From a virus (taxonomy: Duplodnaviria > Heunggongvirae > Uroviricota > Caudoviricetes), in IMG/VR virus record IMGVR_UViG_2609459822_000013, positions 1 through 64,000 of that record: a stretch of DNA of 64,000 nt. One strand, given 5' to 3'. The translations under genes were made by a program, and so were the position numbers. Shown piece after piece: positions 2,562-54,193 of this stretch; position 1 is the first letter of the stretch, and every line of letters starts with the position of its first letter. The notes under the pieces are model-generated. The model searched no databases. It was not told the origin of the DNA and saw only the letters and a list, made by a program, of their open reading frames with translations.

Positions 2562-3971
2562 TTAAAAAGATGCGTTATTCTGATTGTTTCGTTGGTTGAA
2601 TCGGTTTGTACGATGATTCATGGACTGAATACATGCAGACGCTGCGCGGGCCTGGTCACAAGGGAGGATATTGCCGTTGTCATCAAACCGCTGGTAAACA
2701 GTGCCACTTTTCCCGTGACGGTTTTTAGATACAATTATTTCCATATATTCGCGTGCTACAGACTGTTCATCGTAGTAACCATCGCGGTACACCATGATGA
2801 TCCTGTCAGCGTCTTGCTCAAGGTTCCCGGAATCGCGAAGATCTGAATTGTTAGGGCGCTTATTCGGTCGTTCCTCAACGCGGCGTGACAGTTGGGCCAG
2901 CGCCAACACTGGTACGCGCAATTCTTTCGCCATCATCTTCAACGACCACGACAATTGCCCTACAGCGAGATCGTGACGTTCGGCCTTAGCCAGCTTCATT
3001 AACCCGATGTAGTCAATCATTACCATACCCAAGTTGGGGTGTTCCTGTTTCATCCGTTCCGTGGTGGCGCGTATTTCCTCAACCGTTAACTGCGACGCGT
3101 CAACAATCCACACATCAAGATTGGCAAGTGCGCTCATACCCTGGCCAACATGCGCCCACCCCTCATCATCAAGTTTTACCGGATTGCGCAGGCAGTCAGT
3201 TGATAAATTACCAGCGCCAGCGATAGCACGTTCAGTCATCTGATCGAGTGACATTTCAAGCGTAAACAGCAAAACGCCTACCCGCTGACCTTCGCCGCCA
3301 GGGTAAGGGCGTTCGGCAGCCTCGCGGGCAATTGCAAGCGCCAACGCAGATTTACCAGACCCAGGACGTCCGGCGAGAAGCACCAGATCAGTAGCGTTAA
3401 TGCCGCCTAACATTTCGTCGAGTGGGTCAATCCCTGTTTTGATGTTGTCAGAGTTCACGCCACACTCCATGCGTTTACTTAGCACTTCCGTGTATTCCTG
3501 GACAGCATCGCGCAACAGCACCGGGATAATCTGATCTTTTGTTACCTTTAATTTTGAATACCGGGAATCAAAATCTTTCATCGTCTCTTTGACGACCTCA
3601 AGTGTCCCAGTTTCCAGTTTGTAGCGCATATCGTCGATGAGTTCCAACATCTGCCGCCGCTGGTGCTCTTCACGTAGTAGCTGTGCATATCCCTTCAGGT
3701 TGGCAGCAGAAGGGCACGATCGCGCCGTTTGCATTAGCGGTACAAAGTTTTCATTACCAATCTCATCACCAACCAGTAACGCGTCGATAAGATTTCTGTT
3801 TCTGGCTTGCGCCCGGATAATTTCAAAAGCCCGCTTATATAGCGGAATAGTGAATACTTCAGGATCGAGCGTAGCAAGAACGTCTTGCGCGTTAGGTGTA
3901 AGCCCGCCTAACAGGAGTCCGCCTATCACAGCAGACTCTCGTTCTTGTCGCAGTGAGTTAACAGAATCCAT
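2562..3971 (-). CDS. DnaB-family replicative DNA helicase (P22 gene 12-like)
   Basis: 469 aa; Walker A LAGRPGSGKSALALAIA, DnaB C-terminal motifs (LAQLSR..E.R...R.PNNSDLRDSGNLEQDADRI). Confidence 0.85.
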   Translation of the reverse strand: MDSVNSLRQERESAVIGGLLLGGLTPNAQDVLATLDPEVFTIPLYKRAFEIIRAQARNRNLIDALLVGDEIGNENFVPLMQTARSCPSAANLKGYAQLLREEHQRRQMLELIDDMRYKLETGTLEVVKETMKDFDSRYSKLKVTKDQIIPVLLRDAVQEYTEVLSKRMECGVNSDNIKTGIDPLDEMLGGINATDLVLLAGRPGSGKSALALAIAREAAERPYPGGEGQRVGVLLFTLEMSLDQMTERAIAGAGNLSTDCLRNPVKLDDEGWAHVGQGMSALANLDVWIVDASQLTVEEIRATTERMKQEHPNLGMVMIDYIGLMKLAKAERHDLAVGQLSWSLKMMAKELRVPVLALAQLSRRVEERPNKRPNNSDLRDSGNLEQDADRIIMVYRDGYYDEQSVAREYMEIIVSKNRHGKSGTVYQRFDDNGNILPCDQARAASACIQSMNHRTNRFNQRNNQNNASF

Positions 3972-3987
3972 TATGGCATTACCTCCG

Positions 3988-4003
3988 GTTTACAAAATGG
4001 AAT
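3988..4003 (+). repeat. dispersed motif copy GTTTACAAAATGGAAT
   Basis: exact 16-mer; overlaps the last codons of the phosphoesterase gene, just upstream of the helicase RBS. Confidence 0.6.
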
Positions 4004-8034: not shown

Positions 8035-8253
8035 CGTGTTTTCTCCTATGGTTAGAGTGAACGCGCGGGCGGGCATCCCATTAGCATTAGATAGCAGTGA
8101 CTGACCGCTCAACAGATCCCGCCGTTGCGTGATATTTGTTTTTCGCTTCGCAGCGACACCGGATTTTTAAAGAGCTTAAGGTAAGTGCCTTTTTGTGCCT
8201 TCCGTTATCTTTTTCCTTGCGTCTTTGCAAGTATGGCCTTACCTTGTCTGCAA

Positions 8254-8269
8254 GTTTACAAAATGGAAT
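8254..8269 (+). repeat. dispersed motif copy GTTTACAAAATGGAAT (in CI/Cro intergenic region)
   Basis: 16/16 identical to the copy at 3988-4003. Confidence 0.6.
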
Positions 8270-8339
8270 TTTAAGATCAAGGCTTAAAATACACGTTTTG
8301 TGACTTGCATCAAACTTTTTGAGGTTATAGGGTAGCGAC

Positions 8340-9096: not shown

Positions 9097-9110
9097 GTAT
9101 ACAAAATGGA
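9097..9110 (+). repeat. dispersed motif copy GTATACAAAATGGA abutting pL-like -35
   Basis: core ACAAAATGGA; immediately upstream of TTGACT. Confidence 0.55.
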
Positions 9111-9139
9111 TTGACTCGATGTTTTACGGGGCGTATATT
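9111..9139 (+). promoter_or_regulatory. candidate sigma70 promoter (pL-like): TTGACT-N17-TATATT
   Basis: near-consensus -35/-10 with 17 bp spacer downstream of repressor terminator and upstream of the nut-like site. Confidence 0.4.
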
Positions 9140-13192: not shown

Positions 13193-13291
13193 CAGCGTGA
13201 TTGCGATCACATAAATATACATTTTGTATTGTGATTGCATATCCGTTTTGTAAGCCGAAATCAAAAGGTTTACGGTGCGGAGGAAAACAAG

Positions 13292-16587: not shown

Positions 16588-16603
16588 TGTGATGCGGATC
16601 ACA
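16588..16603 (+). promoter_or_regulatory. CRP-consensus-like palindrome TGTGA-TGCGGA-TCACA
   Basis: perfect match to both CRP half-sites with 6 bp spacer; contains GATC. Confidence 0.4.
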
Positions 16604-16634: not shown

Positions 16635-16647
16635 CCATTTTGTATAC
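16635..16647 (-). repeat. dispersed motif copy (reverse) TATACAAAATGGA
   Basis: inverted partner of the 16567 copy, 55 bp away. Confidence 0.55.
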
Positions 16648-16724
16648 TTCAAGCAAACAAAATGCTCTTTAAAAATCCGGCAGCGCTGAAATGCGTAGAA
16701 ATCACCTGAAAAGGAGAGAGCATT

Positions 16725-36943: not shown

Positions 36944-37264
36944 TTATGCTATTTTTTCGTAAAGCACATTCATCTGGGTGCGAATCACTGTTAATATATT
37001 GATTGCTGCGTTCTTATTAATGCGTTTATTCGCTACTATTTTTGTTTTCCCATCAATAACAACCAGATCTGCGTGCAATACATGGTTGAAGTTGACAATG
37101 TAATAATACTGTTTATCGCCAACATGTTGAACATATGCACCATTTAGATTTCCTTTATACCCACAATCACGCTCTGCGACACCGAAGTCAAATTCGCGGT
37201 TCATCTTGCGATTATATGCTACTTGTTTATGTTCCCATTTTCTCATCCATTCATCGCGTTTCAT
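36944..37264 (-). CDS. moron: hypothetical protein (106 aa)
   Basis: reverse-strand ORF inside tail module. Confidence 0.5.
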   Translation of the reverse strand: MKRDEWMRKWEHKQVAYNRKMNREFDFGVAERDCGYKGNLNGAYVQHVGDKQYYYIVNFNHVLHADLVVIDGKTKIVANKRINKNAAINILTVIRTQMNVLYEKIA

Positions 37265-37273
37265 GTTTCACCC

Positions 37274-37933
37274 TTAATTCCAGTTGCAAGCGTTTTTCAC
37301 TTTGTCGATGTGGTTATAAAGACCATCAATGTTAAACACTGCTTTCTCAATGTCGCCAGCTTCCGGCACTGCTTCAATGATAAATTGTTTTTCGTTAACC
37401 AGTTTTTTAATCATTGGGATGGCTTTTTTGCCGTTCCATAATCCAAGAGCTTTATAGTTAGTTGACCGACTCCATTCAGTAGCTACAGCTTTGTGATCGC
37501 CGATCCGGTAGTTAATATAAGTAGTGTCCCCAGCGTCAGTTACATGGTTTGACCATGCTACGAACATTTTTGTTTTATTACCCTGGCAAGCTATTGTTAA
37601 TACAGGTTTGTTTTCATCCCGTGCTTTCAGTGTAGGGAAAGCATCAAGACTTCCGCTGAAATGTTCTGCTTTCACGAAAAGGAACACGTTTTTTGTGTCC
37701 TGCATATCATCTTTTCTTTCGACCACAAGCCACTGTTTACCAGCTTTTTCTTTTGCTAACTGTGCCTCATATGCGGCTTGTTTTGCTTGTTGTTCTGCAA
37801 GCCATTTAGCATTTTTCTCTGCTAATGCTTGTTGCTCTTGATTGGTCACTATAGGCGCTTTTTCATTATCCTCATTGCAACCAACCAGACCCAATACCGC
37901 CGCAATCATTGCCACTTTTGCTAACCGTTTCAT
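37274..37933 (-). CDS. moron: lipoprotein (219 aa)
   Basis: signal peptide with lipobox LVGC; reverse strand within tail module. Confidence 0.6.
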   Translation of the reverse strand: MKRLAKVAMIAAVLGLVGCNEDNEKAPIVTNQEQQALAEKNAKWLAEQQAKQAAYEAQLAKEKAGKQWLVVERKDDMQDTKNVFLFVKAEHFSGSLDAFPTLKARDENKPVLTIACQGNKTKMFVAWSNHVTDAGDTTYINYRIGDHKAVATEWSRSTNYKALGLWNGKKAIPMIKKLVNEKQFIIEAVPEAGDIEKAVFNIDGLYNHIDKVKNACNWN

Positions 37934-37980
37934 AACCCACCACGCTAACTTGATTTACTGACCATTCCCTTTAGCTTCCT

Positions 37981-37994
37981 TATACAAAATGGAG
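37981..37994 (+). repeat. dispersed motif copy TATACAAAATGGAG
   Basis: inverted-repeat partner at 38009-38020. Confidence 0.55.
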
Positions 37995-38008
37995 TCGTTG
38001 AAGTAAAG

Positions 38009-38020
38009 CCATTTTGTATA
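38009..38020 (-). repeat. dispersed motif copy (reverse) TTATACAAAATGG
   Basis: forms palindrome TATACAAAATGG-N14-CCATTTTGTATA. Confidence 0.55.
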
Positions 38021-38060
38021 AAATAGATACACAGATCACATTTTTGCATGAGGTTAAATC

Positions 38061-40397: not shown

Positions 40398-40403
40398 ACA
40401 AAA

Positions 40404-40422
40404 CCCCGGCACAATGCCGGGG
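40404..40422. terminator. bidirectional terminator hairpin
   Basis: CCCCGGCACAATGCCGGGG with A-run upstream. Confidence 0.5.
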
Positions 40423-40436
40423 CTATCTTTATTCAA

Positions 40437-40608
40437 TTTCATCATTTTTAAATTCGCCGTTTGCATAAAGCTGTAATGCGCTTATCAGTTCGTCAGCTTG
40501 CTTTTTGTCTATTACAATCATCTCGCAGTCGCTAACGTTCCATAATCTTCCATCATCTTCAACACTAAGATCAATCCTTCTGCATTCTTCAGTCTCATGA
40601 ATAATCAT
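40437..40608 (-). CDS. moron: small acidic protein (57 aa)
   Basis: below ORF-track cutoff; MIIHETEECRRIDLSVEDDGRLWNV... Confidence 0.35.
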
Positions 40609-40936
40609 TATAAACCTTCATTATGTTATTAATTTTAGTGAATAAATTTACTCAAATCTTGTATACCCTCTTTCAATTTTCCCTCCGTGTACACTTCTGG
40701 CAAATACCGCGTCAGTATACCTAAAAAATGGGCATGTATATGTATCACCTTTACTATCCATCCATTTTAGCACCCATGCCATACGTTTTACATTGCTTTT
40801 ATTTGCCGGGTTTTTCATTTTATTTTCCTCCGCAAATTACAATCTTTCGTTTCTTGCTATATAGCTGCGAGAAAACATTACCAACCAAATATTCCAGATC
40901 TCCCTCCAGGTGAATTTATCGTCCTCCATACCCACC

Positions 40937-41191
40937 TCACTTATGGCAACCGCGAACGCCAGACAATTCATTGAATTTATGGTGTTCAACAATCACCCAC
41001 TCCTTCAGATCCTGGCTATAGACTCGCCAGTCTAAATTGGCGCGGAAGGCGTAGCCGTAACCGTCTTTCAATTTTTTGGGTGACGCATTCTTGTTTAAAA
41101 ACGCGTTCAAAAGTTCCTTTGCTTTTTTGACTGCATGCCCCGGCGCGTTTTTCTGTGCTTTCAGATTTTTGTCAATCGCTACCAGTTTCAT
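40937..41191 (-). CDS. moron: RelE/ParE-superfamily-like toxin candidate
   Basis: 84 aa; pattern KKLK...FRANLDWRVYSQ...WVIVEHHK resembles RelE/ParE. Confidence 0.4.
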   Translation of the reverse strand: MKLVAIDKNLKAQKNAPGHAVKKAKELLNAFLNKNASPKKLKDGYGYAFRANLDWRVYSQDLKEWVIVEHHKFNELSGVRGCHK

Positions 41192-41208: not shown

Positions 41209-41364
41209 TTAGTTAAGTGCCTTCAGGAAGAAGTCCCGGTATTCATCTTCTTTTGCATTCATCATGAATTGACCGTATTTGAATGCGTCGTCGAAACCCT
41301 TAACGATTGCTATTTCCACTTGTTCGAATGCGTTGTTTAGCATTACCACTACATAGCGTTTCAT
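41209..41364 (-). CDS. moron: small protein upstream of toxin-like gene (possible antitoxin)
   Basis: 51 aa from ATG with perfect AAGGAGG RBS; 17 bp upstream of the toxin-like gene. Confidence 0.35.
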   Translation of the reverse strand: MKRYVVVMLNNAFEQVEIAIVKGFDDAFKYGQFMMNAKEDEYRDFFLKALN

Positions 41365-41531: not shown

Positions 41532-41885
41532 ATGCCGGAAGCTTTCAGATGGACGCCGCAAAGAAGCTACAGCGTGACCAGGGAGCCAAACGTATCTGTC
41601 ATTAAACTTGGTGATGGGTATGAACAGCGCCAGGCGAAAGGGATCAACACATTGCTTGATAGCTACACCCTGGTTTTTAAAGGCAGTAGCGCAGGATGCG
41701 GTGATGGTGGGAACGTGGCGATCCAGGCAGAAGCATTCTTGAGGGCGCGCGGCGCTAGCGAGGCTTTTTACTGGTCGCCGTCTATGGATGGCGTGCAAAG
41801 GCTTTTTGTTTGCCGTAGCTGGAGTATGACAAAGGACGGGCCTGTATACACGCTAAACGCAACGTTTGAGCAAGTTATTAATTAG
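41532..41885 (+). CDS. minor tail protein M
   Basis: 117 aa; matches recalled lambda gpM motifs (FRW, GDGYxQR, ...FEQVIN C-terminus). Confidence 0.8.
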   Translation: MPEAFRWTPQRSYSVTREPNVSVIKLGDGYEQRQAKGINTLLDSYTLVFKGSSAGCGDGGNVAIQAEAFLRARGASEAFYWSPSMDGVQRLFVCRSWSMTKDGPVYTLNATFEQVIN

Positions 41886-41894
41886 GGAGGGGAT

Positions 41895-42077
41895 ATGCCT
41901 TATTTTTGTGTAGTGGAGCGCACTGGCGCTTTTACATTGTTCGCCGACTATGAAATTAATGATCTTACTGTCCGGGCTGATAACGGTGAGACGTGGTATC
42001 TTCATGATATGGGTGATGGATATATCGGCTGTACGACTTGGGATGGCAAAGAAGTAGCATTTCTATCCTACGATTAA
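41895..42077 (+). CDS. hypothetical protein
   Basis: 60 aa after M, followed by terminator. Confidence 0.4.
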   Translation: MPYFCVVERTGAFTLFADYEINDLTVRADNGETWYLHDMGDGYIGCTTWDGKEVAFLSYD

Positions 42078-42085
42078 AAAAAACA

Positions 42086-42101
42086 CCCCGCCACGGCGGG
42101 G
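42086..42101. terminator. bidirectional terminator hairpin
   Basis: CCCCGC-CACG-GCGGGG flanked by A8 run and T-rich run. Confidence 0.55.
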
Positions 42102-42178
42102 TTTATAGTGTCGATAGCAGAATGCATGACAATCCAATAATGATAATGATCATTTCCAGAACGTAATGTTCGCACATC

Positions 42179-42427
42179 TCATAACGCCCCCTTCAAATAT
42201 GTCAATCCCTTATCAGTGACGAATGAGTGATTAACCTGGTTTTCATCCGTCATGATGATAAATAACTTTTCCTGTAGGTATTTCGCTTTAGGGTACAGCG
42301 TTAAGCAGACCTGGTACAGTATCCCGCGCTCAATCAGCAAATCAATAAATTCGTGTTCATGATAACCGATGAGGCGGGCGGCCTGTTTCAACGTGTACAC
42401 ATAATCACCGTGATTGCGCCGCCCCAT
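42179..42427 (-). CDS. moron: HTH-like small protein (82 aa)
   Basis: YTLKQAARLIGYHEHEFIDLLIERGIL. Confidence 0.45.
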   Translation of the reverse strand: MGRRNHGDYVYTLKQAARLIGYHEHEFIDLLIERGILYQVCLTLYPKAKYLQEKLFIIMTDENQVNHSFVTDKGLTYLKGAL

Positions 42428-42436
42428 GTTGCCGCC

Positions 42437-42784
42437 TTATTTATCGAATGCTGAAAGGTTATCGATACAGAAATCTTTCGCAGCTTTTTCGTATTCGCGT
42501 TTTGCTTCTGGATCGTCAGCCGGGAAACCTTTTGCGTGTATTTCACCAGGGCAAGACTGATCCATAGAGTCTGCAAAATTAACATTGAAGTTAACATTAA
42601 TATCTTTCGGGTTCATATCTTCCACCTCATCAACTATCTGTACCGGATTAGCAGTATATTTCACTGGATGGCCTAAACTACATTCAAGAATCCTGCCTTC
42701 TTCCAGGGCTACTTCTTCGCTATCAAATAATCCGAAACACTCCTTGCTACCACTTAACCACACATCAAGACTGTATTTTTTCAT
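42437..42784 (-). CDS. moron: hypothetical protein (115 aa)
   Basis: GAGG RBS; middle gene of 3-gene reverse operon. Confidence 0.45.
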   Translation of the reverse strand: MKKYSLDVWLSGSKECFGLFDSEEVALEEGRILECSLGHPVKYTANPVQIVDEVEDMNPKDINVNFNVNFADSMDQSCPGEIHAKGFPADDPEAKREYEKAAKDFCIDNLSAFDK

Positions 42785-42953
42785 TTTTGTTAGCCTCATA
42801 TTTGACAGGTTCGATCTGGTATCCCAAAAGGCGGTCATCCTCAGCAAGTAAAAGCGCGTCAACCAATGCTTCCCCCTCGTCGTCATACAGGGCGATAACC
42901 TTTTCCCTACCGTCTGTCATGAATACCGTCAACTTCCATAGCTTTTCAGTCAT
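42765..42953 (-). CDS. moron: small acidic protein (62 aa)
   Basis: GGAGGTG RBS; first gene of operon. Confidence 0.4.
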   Translation of the reverse strand: MTEKLWKLTVFMTDGREKVIALYDDEGEALVDALLLAEDDRLLGYQIEPVKYEANKNEKIQS

Positions 42954-42967
42954 AACGCACCTCCGCG

Positions 42968-42980
42968 CCATTTTGTTAAC
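42968..42980 (-). repeat. dispersed motif copy (reverse) GTTAACAAAATGG
   Basis: core CAAAATGG. Confidence 0.5.
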
Positions 42981-43028
42981 TTCCCCTTCGTTTGAGTAAA
43001 ATATACATATTGTAAAACAACGATCAAT

Positions 43029-43039
43029 CCATTTTGGTA
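43029..43039 (-). repeat. dispersed motif copy TACCAAAATGG
   Basis: core palindromic CCAAAATGG. Confidence 0.45.
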
Positions 43040-43047
43040 TGATTTAG

Positions 43048-43063
43048 CGTGACGCAGATCACA
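43048..43063 (+). promoter_or_regulatory. CRP-like palindrome CGTGA-CGCAGA-TCACA
   Basis: 15/16 match to TGTGA-N6-TCACA; ~18/20 identical to the 16588 element including flanking AATG. Confidence 0.35.
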
Positions 43064-43081
43064 AAATGACAAGGTGAGAAA

Positions 43082-43786
43082 ATGCGCAATATTCCGAGAG
43101 AGATGATTATTGATTCCGTCGATGCCGGAGTTGGCGCGGTCATTGACTTATTTGAACTGGACCTTACTCCCCTGGGAGGCGAGGTTATCCGCTTCCATTC
43201 CGGCGCGAACGGCTATTACGGCCAGGTTATCTGGAAGGGAGTAGCTTACAACAGCTACCCGATCGAGGCGACGGGCTTCGAAATGAAAAATGAGGGTGTT
43301 TATTCACGGCCTCAAATGGTTGTAGCCAATATCGGCGGACTCATTACGGGGATGAACAACGATTTTAACGACCTTAGAGGAATGAAGGTTACGCGCCGCC
43401 AGGTGGAGGTGAAATATCTTGACGCCGTTAACTTCCCTAACGGTAATCCAGACGCAGATCCATCTATTGAGGCTGTATCTTTTTACGTCGTTGAAGCAAT
43501 GAGCGAAGAAACAGCGGATCAGGTGCAGTATGAACTGTCAACGCCAATTGATGCAGATAAAGCTGTCATCCCTGGGCGCACCATCCTTGCTGACGTTTGC
43601 CAGTGGCAATACAGAGGCGACGGGTGTATGTACGCTGGCGGACCAGTAGCAAACGATAAAGACGAGCCGACAAGCGATCCTAAAGCCGACAGATGTAGCC
43701 ACCGTCTGAGCGGTTGTCGTTTACGTTTCCCGCGTCCAAATCCGTTACCAATTTCCTGTTTCCCCGGTTCAAGTAAGGTGGGCTAA
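43082..43786 (+). CDS. minor tail protein L
   Basis: 234 aa; matches recalled lambda gpL motifs (RFLDAVNF.NGN..ADP, Cys-rich C-terminus). Confidence 0.8.
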   Translation: MRNIPREMIIDSVDAGVGAVIDLFELDLTPLGGEVIRFHSGANGYYGQVIWKGVAYNSYPIEATGFEMKNEGVYSRPQMVVANIGGLITGMNNDFNDLRGMKVTRRQVEVKYLDAVNFPNGNPDADPSIEAVSFYVVEAMSEETADQVQYELSTPIDADKAVIPGRTILADVCQWQYRGDGCMYAGGPVANDKDEPTSDPKADRCSHRLSGCRLRFPRPNPLPISCFPGSSKVG

Positions 43787-54071: not shown

Positions 54072-54193
54072 GCAGGTGAATGCAACGTCAAGCGATGGGC
54101 GTTGCGCTCCATATTGTCTTACTTCCTTTTTTGAATTACTGCATAGCACAATTGATTCGTACGACGCCGACTTTGATGAGTCGGCTTTTTTTT
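54072..54193 (+). ncRNA. fnrS: FnrS small regulatory RNA
   Basis: recalled FnrS sequence (GCAGGTGAATGCAACGTCAAGCGATGGGCG...) and zntB-dbpA intergenic location; ends in hairpin GCCGACTTTGATGAGTCGGC + T9. Confidence 0.75.

Follow-up and report, generated by a model that had tools for sequence, protein, structure and literature searches.

Second immunity regions, such as immI of P22 (mnt-arc-ant) and immI of P1 (c4-icd-ant), are small, separately regulated operons lying far from the main repressor gene, in P22 among the late genes, in which an antirepressor-family protein is preceded by small overlapping open reading frames (ORFs). Morons in the definition of Hendrix, among them bor and lom of lambda and the morons of HK97, may be expressed from the prophage. 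Here we describe a three-gene cassette (genes A, B and C, 42179–42953, minus strand) located between tail genes M and L, which are adjacent in lambda, in a stretch of 64,000 nt (positions 1 to 64,000 of the IMG/VR virus record IMGVR_UViG_2609459822_000013, in the following called the window). By analogy, the lambdoid morons and the immI regions of P22 and P1 appear to be the closest counterparts of the cassette in the way it works, while its layout also recalls acr-aca loci. Judged by its predicted signals, it is an autonomous, position-conserved, non-structural operon with a conserved promoter, a CRP-type site and a terminator, and we consider it very probable that it is accessory and regulatory rather than structural.

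All the traits named above for the immI regions are shared by the cassette. It differs from them in that the antirepressor-family protein, encoded by gene C, consists of a KilAC domain only, that no counterpart of Arc, Mnt or c4 was found, that control is apparently exerted by CRP and that the two preceding proteins A and B are without known relatives. With morons it has in common a predicted promoter and terminator of its own, a lower G+C content and a location between genes that are neighbours in the late operons of other phages. Unlike sporadic morons, however, the cassette is core to its phage group (50/50 loci), with only optional extra genes varying, and unlike lambdoid morons it is a three-gene operon on the opposite strand whose products are all predicted to be cytoplasmic instead of envelope proteins.

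The window represents an mEp021-type (mEpimmI) Escherichia coli prophage, as the region displays 85–89 % identity to MagusPhagus, mEp013, mEp554, mEp515 and mEp021 in megablast. Phages of this group are described as temperate, Nus-dependent and non-lambdoid with a CI-like repressor featuring an S24 LexA-like domain; in the human-faecal temperate coliphage collection where they were found, their prevalence was about that of lambdoid phages, and a KilAC-like gene is counted as part of their core (PMC11893012). Rfam matches to the FnrS sRNA (54072–54189) and to RalA, the antitoxin RNA of the Rac prophage (58499–58677), show that the right end of the window runs into the E. coli chromosome and the neighbouring Rac prophage and thus that the phage is integrated. 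The same Rfam scan detected no known RNA family within or near the cassette. We also ruled out that the cassette encodes Ipe, the haemolysis-inducing protein of mEp021, since ipe is gp29 in the early region.

Gene A (42765–42953, minus strand) encodes a protein of 62 aa with a pI of 4.4 and is preceded by GGAGGTG 5 nt before its ATG at 42953. It is followed on the same strand by gene B (42437–42784; 115 aa, pI 4.4), with GAGG 9 nt before the ATG, and by gene C (42179–42427; 82 aa, pI 7.9), with AAGGCGG before the ATG. Three reverse-strand genes between M and L, the first of them acidic and each with a good ribosome binding site (RBS), had already been proposed in a sequence-only reading of this DNA, with which the coordinates, the RBSs and the ratios of non-synonymous to synonymous polymorphism (pN/pS) agree. 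The overlap of A and B noted there amounts to 20 nt when the A stop codon is counted, whereas B and C are 9 nt and not 10 bp apart; they share the same reading frame, with one stop codon and three codons between them. An in-frame ATG at 42971 would lengthen A to 68 aa and is out of frame or absent in relatives. Among distinct alleles (n=29–38), pN/pS values of 0.39 for A, 0.33 for B and 0.13 for C show that all three are translated genes under purifying selection; the corresponding values for M and L are 0.12 and 0.07.

The arrangement A-B-C between L and the ORF pair X60-M was found in three annotated phages, while A-B-C is also present in 35 of 5426 complete E. coli genomes and in 43 of the 43 IMG/VR loci recovered with C. 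Its position is the same in 46 of 46 close relatives and in four loci of a distant lineage (L048–L051), in which C is 73 % identical. Since each of the 50 loci examined has the cassette in this position, it is ancestral to the phage group and not a recent insertion, so that the word "inserted" used for it before does not hold. The alternative named alongside the earlier reading, that the genes might be tail-assembly accessory proteins conserved in position in related phages, is right about the position, while nothing supports the function. A role in tail assembly could draw on the location between M and L in every relative, but the cassette lies on the opposite strand with its own promoter and terminator, C carries a KilAC regulatory domain, and non-synonymous sites change three to six times as fast in A and B as they do in M and L. 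The homologues in mEp021, gp71–74, furthermore lack the label "virion structural protein" that other genes of the same GenBank record bear; in this phage, mass spectrometry identified 16 structural proteins. Neither A, B nor C matched a tail family among the Pfam and PHROG profiles. Lambda-type tails, moreover, are generally known to assemble without such genes. We regard a tail-assembly function as highly improbable. The non-structural, regulatory character suggested by the sequence-only reading is instead in line with the conserved promoter and terminator, the low G+C content, the missing structural label in mEp021 and the membership of C in the KilAC/ANT family.

Across the relatives, L (85–100 % identity), M (84–100 %) and C (90–100 %) are well conserved, while A (44–100 %) and B (57–100 %) vary widely. 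Optional same-strand genes occur between B and C, namely a 77-aa gene (mEp021 gp72) or an HNH endonuclease gene, as well as after C, where a 67-aa gene, a gene for a 45-aa hydrophobic peptide and a 58-aa gene were observed; apart from the HNH endonuclease, none of them belongs to a family of known function. The window contains the minimal version of the cassette without any of these extras. This uptake of extra small genes and a homing endonuclease by the locus counts toward its non-structural character, as does the typical cargo of the neighbouring reverse cassettes, which encode a ParE-like toxin and a VasI-like protein. HNH homing-endonuclease genes in the tail region were seen at 3500–4000 of the IMG/VR phage locus L013, between B and C, and as mEp021 gp78, between I and J.

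The antirepressors known to be linked to AntA/AntB and KilAC domains include Ant1/Ant2 of P1 and P7, and the KilAC domain of Listeria AriS on its own blocks the SOS response, probably through RecA (PMC9043618). CreP from Acinetobacter baylyi, a stand-alone KilAC protein of 103 aa, is bacteriostatic and causes division arrest and filaments, also in E. coli, and the short motifs AKxLxL and TxKG were noted for CreP and P1 KilA (bioRxiv 10.1101/2024.01.05.574328). The protein encoded by gene C matches the Pfam family ANT/KilAC (PF03374) with 28.7 bits against a gathering cut-off of 25.3 (E 1.8e-6), residues 10–79 aligning to profile positions 23–102 of 108, and is therefore a family member by the Pfam threshold. 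No AntA, Bro-N, KilA-N or Rha N-terminal domain was detected with C by Pfam, and B matches no Rha or other Pfam family, so that the cassette lacks the N-terminal domain of a canonical two-domain antirepressor. From its sequence, C is thus a KilAC domain standing alone and the conserved anchor of the cassette. Its close relatives comprise only seven clusters of 82 aa, all from E. coli, while most of the more distant phage relatives at 30–41 % identity (tblastn) bear annotations as antirepressors or Rha-family regulators. The two distant relatives checked by Pfam are Rha-KilAC proteins of 217–233 aa, and it is their C-terminal domain that C matches. C resembles CreP and the KilAC domain of AriS in being a KilAC domain on its own, and keeps the TxKG motif. 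It differs from CreP in being shorter, starting only at profile position 23, in keeping AKxLxL by half (A16-A-R-L19-I-G, AARLIG) and in being flanked by phage rather than CRISPR genes. The helix-turn-helix (HTH) likeness previously ascribed to the 82-aa protein comes down to a weak similarity to the MerR/excisionase-type fold, its family being KilAC/ANT.

In contrast to C, the searches place A and B without relatives outside the mEp021-type phage group. A belongs to phrog_29559, a family of unknown function, and is found in 20 protein clusters among 5.8 billion proteins, while the 58 clusters of B in the same collection all stem from E. coli or phage. B matched nothing in Pfam, NCBIfam or PADLOC, and an exhaustive profile search for its remote homologues among 1.84 billion representatives yielded nothing real outside the family; the sole outside match to the B profile, P0090, turned out to be a chance match to a repeat protein. 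The structure model of B consists of a confident beta-beta-alpha-beta domain (residues 1–50, pLDDT ~90), a segment predicted to be disordered (residues 56–88) and a helix (92–111), whereby the tail (residues 71–115), which includes C78, H83 and C106, is strongly conserved. The fast-evolving A is predicted to adopt a beta-beta-alpha-beta shape similar to the N-terminal domain of B, and both align in register (hhalign E 0.012). In the divergent lineage L048–L051, the A-like and B-like parts constitute one ORF of 172 aa (P0055). This fusion implies that A and B act as one unit, and together they are best seen as a split protein of two predicted domains plus a tail.

The two parts of B evolve very differently, with a pN/pS of 0.44 for residues 1–56 and of 0.11 for residues 71–115. 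As pS in the latter segment is 0.415, its conservation reflects constraint on the protein and not hitchhiking in a recombination block. Nine A types and seven B-head types occur in 14 combinations in 46 loci, showing reassortment between phages, and in locus L010 A is replaced by an unrelated 52-aa ORF. We infer that A/B is a modulating or partner-binding component with the B tail as its docking piece. The A/B overlap (42765–42784) also contains a run of six A (ATGAAAAAATAC), where a +1 slip would join A and B in frame as in L048–L051; since the run is not kept in relatives (e.g. MQKY and MRKW starts), this is probably not a programmed event. We further considered B as the N-terminal half of a split antirepressor and rejected this, as hhalign against two Rha-KilAC antirepressors gave E values of 0.18 and 0.45 only; joining the B tail to C likewise did not extend the ANT match.

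To follow the control region of the cassette, the L-A intergenic region (130 nt) was aligned from 35 distinct relatives, to which the following column counts refer. A consensus scan predicts a sigma-70 promoter on the minus strand (43000–43027) with the −35 element TTGATC (43022–43027), a 16-nt spacer and the −10 element TATATT (43000–43005), from which cassette transcription would start near 42992–42994. The −10 element is invariant at six of six positions and the −35 element TTGAT(C/A) at five of six, and both elements recur in the divergent lineage L048. Upstream of the promoter, a pattern search revealed the CRP-like palindrome TGTGATCTGCGTCACG (43048–43063, minus strand). In its half-sites TGTGA/TCAC, eight of ten columns are invariant and the other two are kept in 34/35 relatives, whereas positions 3–6 of the 6-nt spacer are kept in only 20–28/35. 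Such fixed half-sites with a drifting spacer are the signature of a dimer-bound site. The core meets nine of ten consensus positions in the window and all ten at 16588 and in L048, where the perfect core TGTGATCTGCATCACA (TGTGA-N6-TCACA) stands at lac spacing. The promoter region with a CRP-like palindrome and two copies of a repeated motif described in the sequence-only reading was thus recovered, and its half-sites proved to be conserved across the 35 relatives.

The lac promoter is the type class I CRP promoter and carries TGTGA-N6-TCACT centred at −61.5. Counting from a predicted start 7 nt after the −10 element, the centre of the palindrome is at −62.5 in the window, with a range of −61.5 to −63.5 among relatives. 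The cassette is comparable to lac in having TGTGA-N6-TCAC(G/A) about 61.5–63.5 nt upstream of a start, in this case a predicted one, a weak −35 and a good −10 element; unlike in lac, the right half-site overlaps the phage-specific repeated motif. On these grounds we infer CRP binding and CRP activation of the cassette promoter. The CRP-like pattern occurs at three intergenic places in the window versus 0.26 expected, and at the same three homologous places in mEp021. The two further palindromes, TGTGATCGCAATCACG (13196–13211) and the perfect TGTGATGCGGATCACA (16588–16603), are situated in intergenic DNA of the early region and are both conserved in mEp021; the latter has a motif copy on either side and precedes a possible plus-strand promoter, TTGTTT-16-TATACT (−10 at 16643–16648), by about 60 nt.

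At the other end of the cassette, a hairpin of seven pairs, six of them G-C (42085–42102), is followed by T8 on the cassette strand and by only TTTATAG on the tail strand, so that it is predicted to be a strong terminator for the cassette and a weak one for the tail strand in the window. Nearly all relatives retain its stem CCCCGC/GCGGGG but differ in the loop, and the mEp021 record annotates this hairpin as a terminator on both strands. The bidirectional terminator assigned before is consequently confirmed as a conserved hairpin, its tail-strand side being weak in the window.

The −10 element is overlaid by the near-palindrome TACAATAT-GT-ATATTTTA (42997–43014), which was read from the 35-relative alignment. 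Relatives feature ATATT(G/T)TA as the right arm, and the repeat is perfect in those with G at 42999; it may be a candidate operator. A possible plus-strand promoter facing that of the cassette, TTGTTA (42973–42978)-18-TAAAAT (42997–43002), overlaps this palindrome as well.

An operator at this position would suit an anti-defence operon similar to acr-aca, in which A and B would be immunity inhibitors engaged in an arms race and C an HTH autorepressor acting on the −10 palindrome to shut a strong early promoter after a burst. The acr-aca loci of Pseudomonas Mu-like phages are indeed comparable in their variable small acidic genes, their conserved HTH-type gene, their fixed site among structural genes and their inverted-repeat promoter. 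Likewise, in the cassette variable small acidic genes are followed by a small HTH-like gene that is conserved, all at one fixed place in a structural operon. The 14 combinations of A and B-head types, the replaced A of L010 and the varying extra genes point the same way, C is closest in fold to the DNA-binding HTH domains of MerR/excisionase type, and the cassette promoter is similar to the early pR-like one. Homologues of A and B, however, occur in essentially every member and as such are core genes, whereas true acr genes show presence/absence and non-homologous replacement. C is not assigned to any known Aca family, although no search against an Aca or Acr library was made. A B tail constrained like a structural protein (pN/pS 0.11) would be unusual for an arms-race inhibitor, a CRP-dependent promoter would be odd for a function needed at once in every infection, and no target can be named. 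We therefore rate an acr-aca-like function as unlikely, albeit deserving of attention.

Beyond the palindromes, the control region contains two copies of a dispersed asymmetric motif of 14 nt, AGTWTACAAAATGG, whose 9-mer core ACAAAATGG occurs 14 times in the window versus 1.24 expected, mostly in intergenic DNA and usually in the same orientation as the downstream gene. Motif positions are 3992, 8258, 8346, 9101, 14221 (variant), 16571, 16635, 37984, 38009, 41436, 42968, 43029 (variant) and 50412. Copy 1, CCAAAATGG (43029–43037, minus strand; CCATTTTGGTA at 43029), adjoins the −35 element of the cassette. Copy 2, GTTAACAAAATGGC (42967–42980, minus strand; CCATTTTGTTA at 42968), lies in the 5' leader just before the RBS of A. 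Conservation is highest for this copy among the three here, 11 of its 14 columns being invariant in the relatives while its flanks vary. The motif adjoins the −35 elements of four mutually alignable promoters, namely the pR-like promoter (9101), the cassette promoter (43029–43037) and those of other reverse cassettes (41436 and 38009), and three copies (8258, 8346 and 9101) bracket the repressor gene. In mEp021, most of the corresponding places carry a copy as well, among them the two cassette sites of the tail region, the pR-like promoter and the pair at 16.6 kb. We rejected ACAAAATGG as a start codon or leader peptide, because relatives either have the ATG in another frame or lack it, and the motif-internal ATG is lost in L048. 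A simple −35 or −10 element, whichever way the motif is read, would fit only some of the copies. The motif could be a promoter element of the UP type or be recognised by a regulator, for which the repressor is a candidate. As an UP-like element it would leave the cassette on in lysogens, whereas as a repressor target it would make the cassette an early lytic function.

Between the leftward early genes and the repressor gene, an imperfect inverted repeat with 27-nt arms (8249–8309) carries one motif copy in one arm and a TGTGAC-containing variant in the other. This repeat is likely the operator region of the immunity switch and, to our knowledge, has never been mapped.

The motif also bears on the identity of the factor bound at TGTGA-N6-TCAC, which could instead be a phage regulator (C, the repressor or another protein) belonging to the same system as ACAAAATGG; this concerns regulation only and would be compatible with the other alternatives. 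The right half-site runs into motif-like sequence (ATCACAAAATGA, 43058–43069), at 16588 the perfect palindrome resembles the motif in its own sequence (ATCACATAATGG) and has a motif copy on either side, the 27-nt inverted repeat next to the repressor gene pairs a motif copy with a TGTGAC variant, and fixed half-sites with a free spacer suit any dimeric binder. Against this, the core corresponds to the CRP consensus as well as the lac site does, with 9/10 positions here and 10/10 at 16588 and in L048, and a site at class I distance, with a weak −35 element in the promoter, is where an activator works and not a repressor. A phage regulator at this site consequently appears doubtful, although we give it more credit than the acr-aca-like alternative.

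Stand-alone KilAC proteins being bacteriostatic in E. coli in the case of CreP, C might also be the growth-arresting toxin of a toxin-antitoxin or abortive-infection module that stabilises the prophage or aborts superinfection, with the acidic A and B neutralising it. This would be in line with small overlapping acidic genes before C, with the B tail and C as co-conserved parts, and with a neighbouring cassette in which a ParE-like toxin gene follows a small upstream gene. Nevertheless, no toxin, antitoxin or defence model of Pfam, PADLOC or NCBIfam was matched, so that a type II pair was not recognised, and genes including a homing endonuclease between B and C break the tight coupling usual for such modules. 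A and the B head are paralogous and fused in one lineage, unlike an antitoxin plus regulator, and A/B variants shuffle freely against a nearly invariant C. We hence judge such a module improbable. A defence function, which the sequence-only reading had offered next to a regulatory one, fared no better: A, B, C and five neighbouring small proteins gave no match to PADLOC-DB 2.0 with E values up to 0.1, and no enzymatic domain was found.

The account we prefer, tentatively and at somewhat less than even confidence, is that of an accessory operon, in kind a moron or second immunity region, which provides for its own transcription under activation by cAMP-CRP and whose KilAC protein acts on the host or on prophage induction. 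Host RNA polymerase would transcribe the cassette from its own sigma-70 promoter, cAMP-CRP would activate it from a lac-like class I position, and the transcripts would terminate at the GC-rich hairpin. As the cassette opposes the Q-dependent late operon head-on, it should be expressible only with late transcription off, i.e. in a lysogen or very early in infection. An action of C on the host or on induction is suggested because the KilAC domain of AriS blocks the SOS response, CreP arrests division and the repressor of the group is LexA-like and self-cleaving. By analogy, C may damp the RecA-dependent cleavage of this LexA-like phage repressor, or division, under carbon starvation, and A/B, with two fast-evolving acidic domains and a constrained tail, could be its variable partner. 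Prophage stability would thereby be tied to the nutritional state of the host, a starvation-induced SOS damper keeping the prophage quiet.

Several observations weigh against this preferred account. The KilAC match of C is modest at 28.7 bits, with the first 22 profile positions missing, and of the two motifs noted for CreP only TxKG is complete in C (TDKG, T71–G74). The distance of the CRP-like site is measured to a predicted start, and relatives differ in it by 2 nt. Moreover, the cassette promoter resembles the early pR-like promoter (9101–9139) in sequence and shares with it the motif that brackets the repressor gene; if this motif were the repressor operator, the cassette would be silent in lysogens and serve an early lytic function instead. 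A wider version of the preferred account would take the cassette and the motif AGTWTACAAAATGG together as a hitherto undescribed second control circuit of a CI-type coliphage, in which CRP-gated KilAC with A/B sets the threshold of SOS induction by carbon supply and the motif copies are single-site targets of the repressor or another regulator. In this they would be comparable to stoperators, which are known from mycobacteriophage L5. We put this wider circuit forward as a long shot.

The surroundings of the cassette show that it is not alone in its orientation, since the tail operon is broken three times by low-G+C minus-strand cassettes. The flanking tail genes on the plus strand are the minor tail gene M (41532–41885; Phage_min_tail, E 8e-28) and L (43082–43786; Phage_tail_L, E 2e-71). 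X60 (41895–42077, plus strand), an acidic ORF of 60 aa assigned to phrog_3249, directly follows M and is, with 57–100 % identity across relatives, much more variable than M or L; the M-X60 transcription unit shares the bidirectional hairpin with the cassette. The G+C content is 0.42–0.44 in the cassette compared to 0.47–0.52 in the tail genes M, L and K, and the strand skew is reversed in the cassette.

Located before the tape-measure gene, the first of the other reverse cassettes encodes a 219-aa protein of the VasI family (37274–37933, minus strand; PF11319, E 2e-16), which is a type VI secretion-associated family, and a second ORF of 106 aa without a match (36944–37264, minus strand). Its promoter region contains two motif copies that form a 13-nt inverted repeat (37980–38021). 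The other cassette, between the tape-measure gene and M, encodes the ParE-like toxin (40937–41191, minus strand; 84 aa, PF24732, E 6e-7) and directly before it a 51-aa protein (41212–41364, minus strand; phrog_29810), and these two are probably a toxin-antitoxin pair. This cassette continues with small ORFs at 40648–40818 and 40429–40608, followed by a hairpin terminator at 40402–40424. As the late genes of mEp021 are governed by a Q-type regulator, late transcription would be expected to read through the hairpins and to collide with the reverse cassettes.

The individual genes have already been deposited as hypothetical proteins or as "KilAC antirepressor", while the operon structure, the CRP-type control, and the A/B split-fusion family with its evolutionary pattern were previously undescribed. 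The cassette is one of the core features of mEp021-type prophages, and A/B illustrates neatly how the head of a phage-restricted protein can evolve fast while its tail stays frozen, so that a search for the partner bound by A/B suggests itself. Should the cassette prove to be an anti-defence or toxin module instead, it would become a small new entry in those catalogues. If, on the other hand, its KilAC protein does link induction or division to cAMP-CRP, this would provide a direct, testable route from the nutrient status of the gut to phage release, as well as a tractable E. coli model for the widespread and poorly understood KilAC domain.

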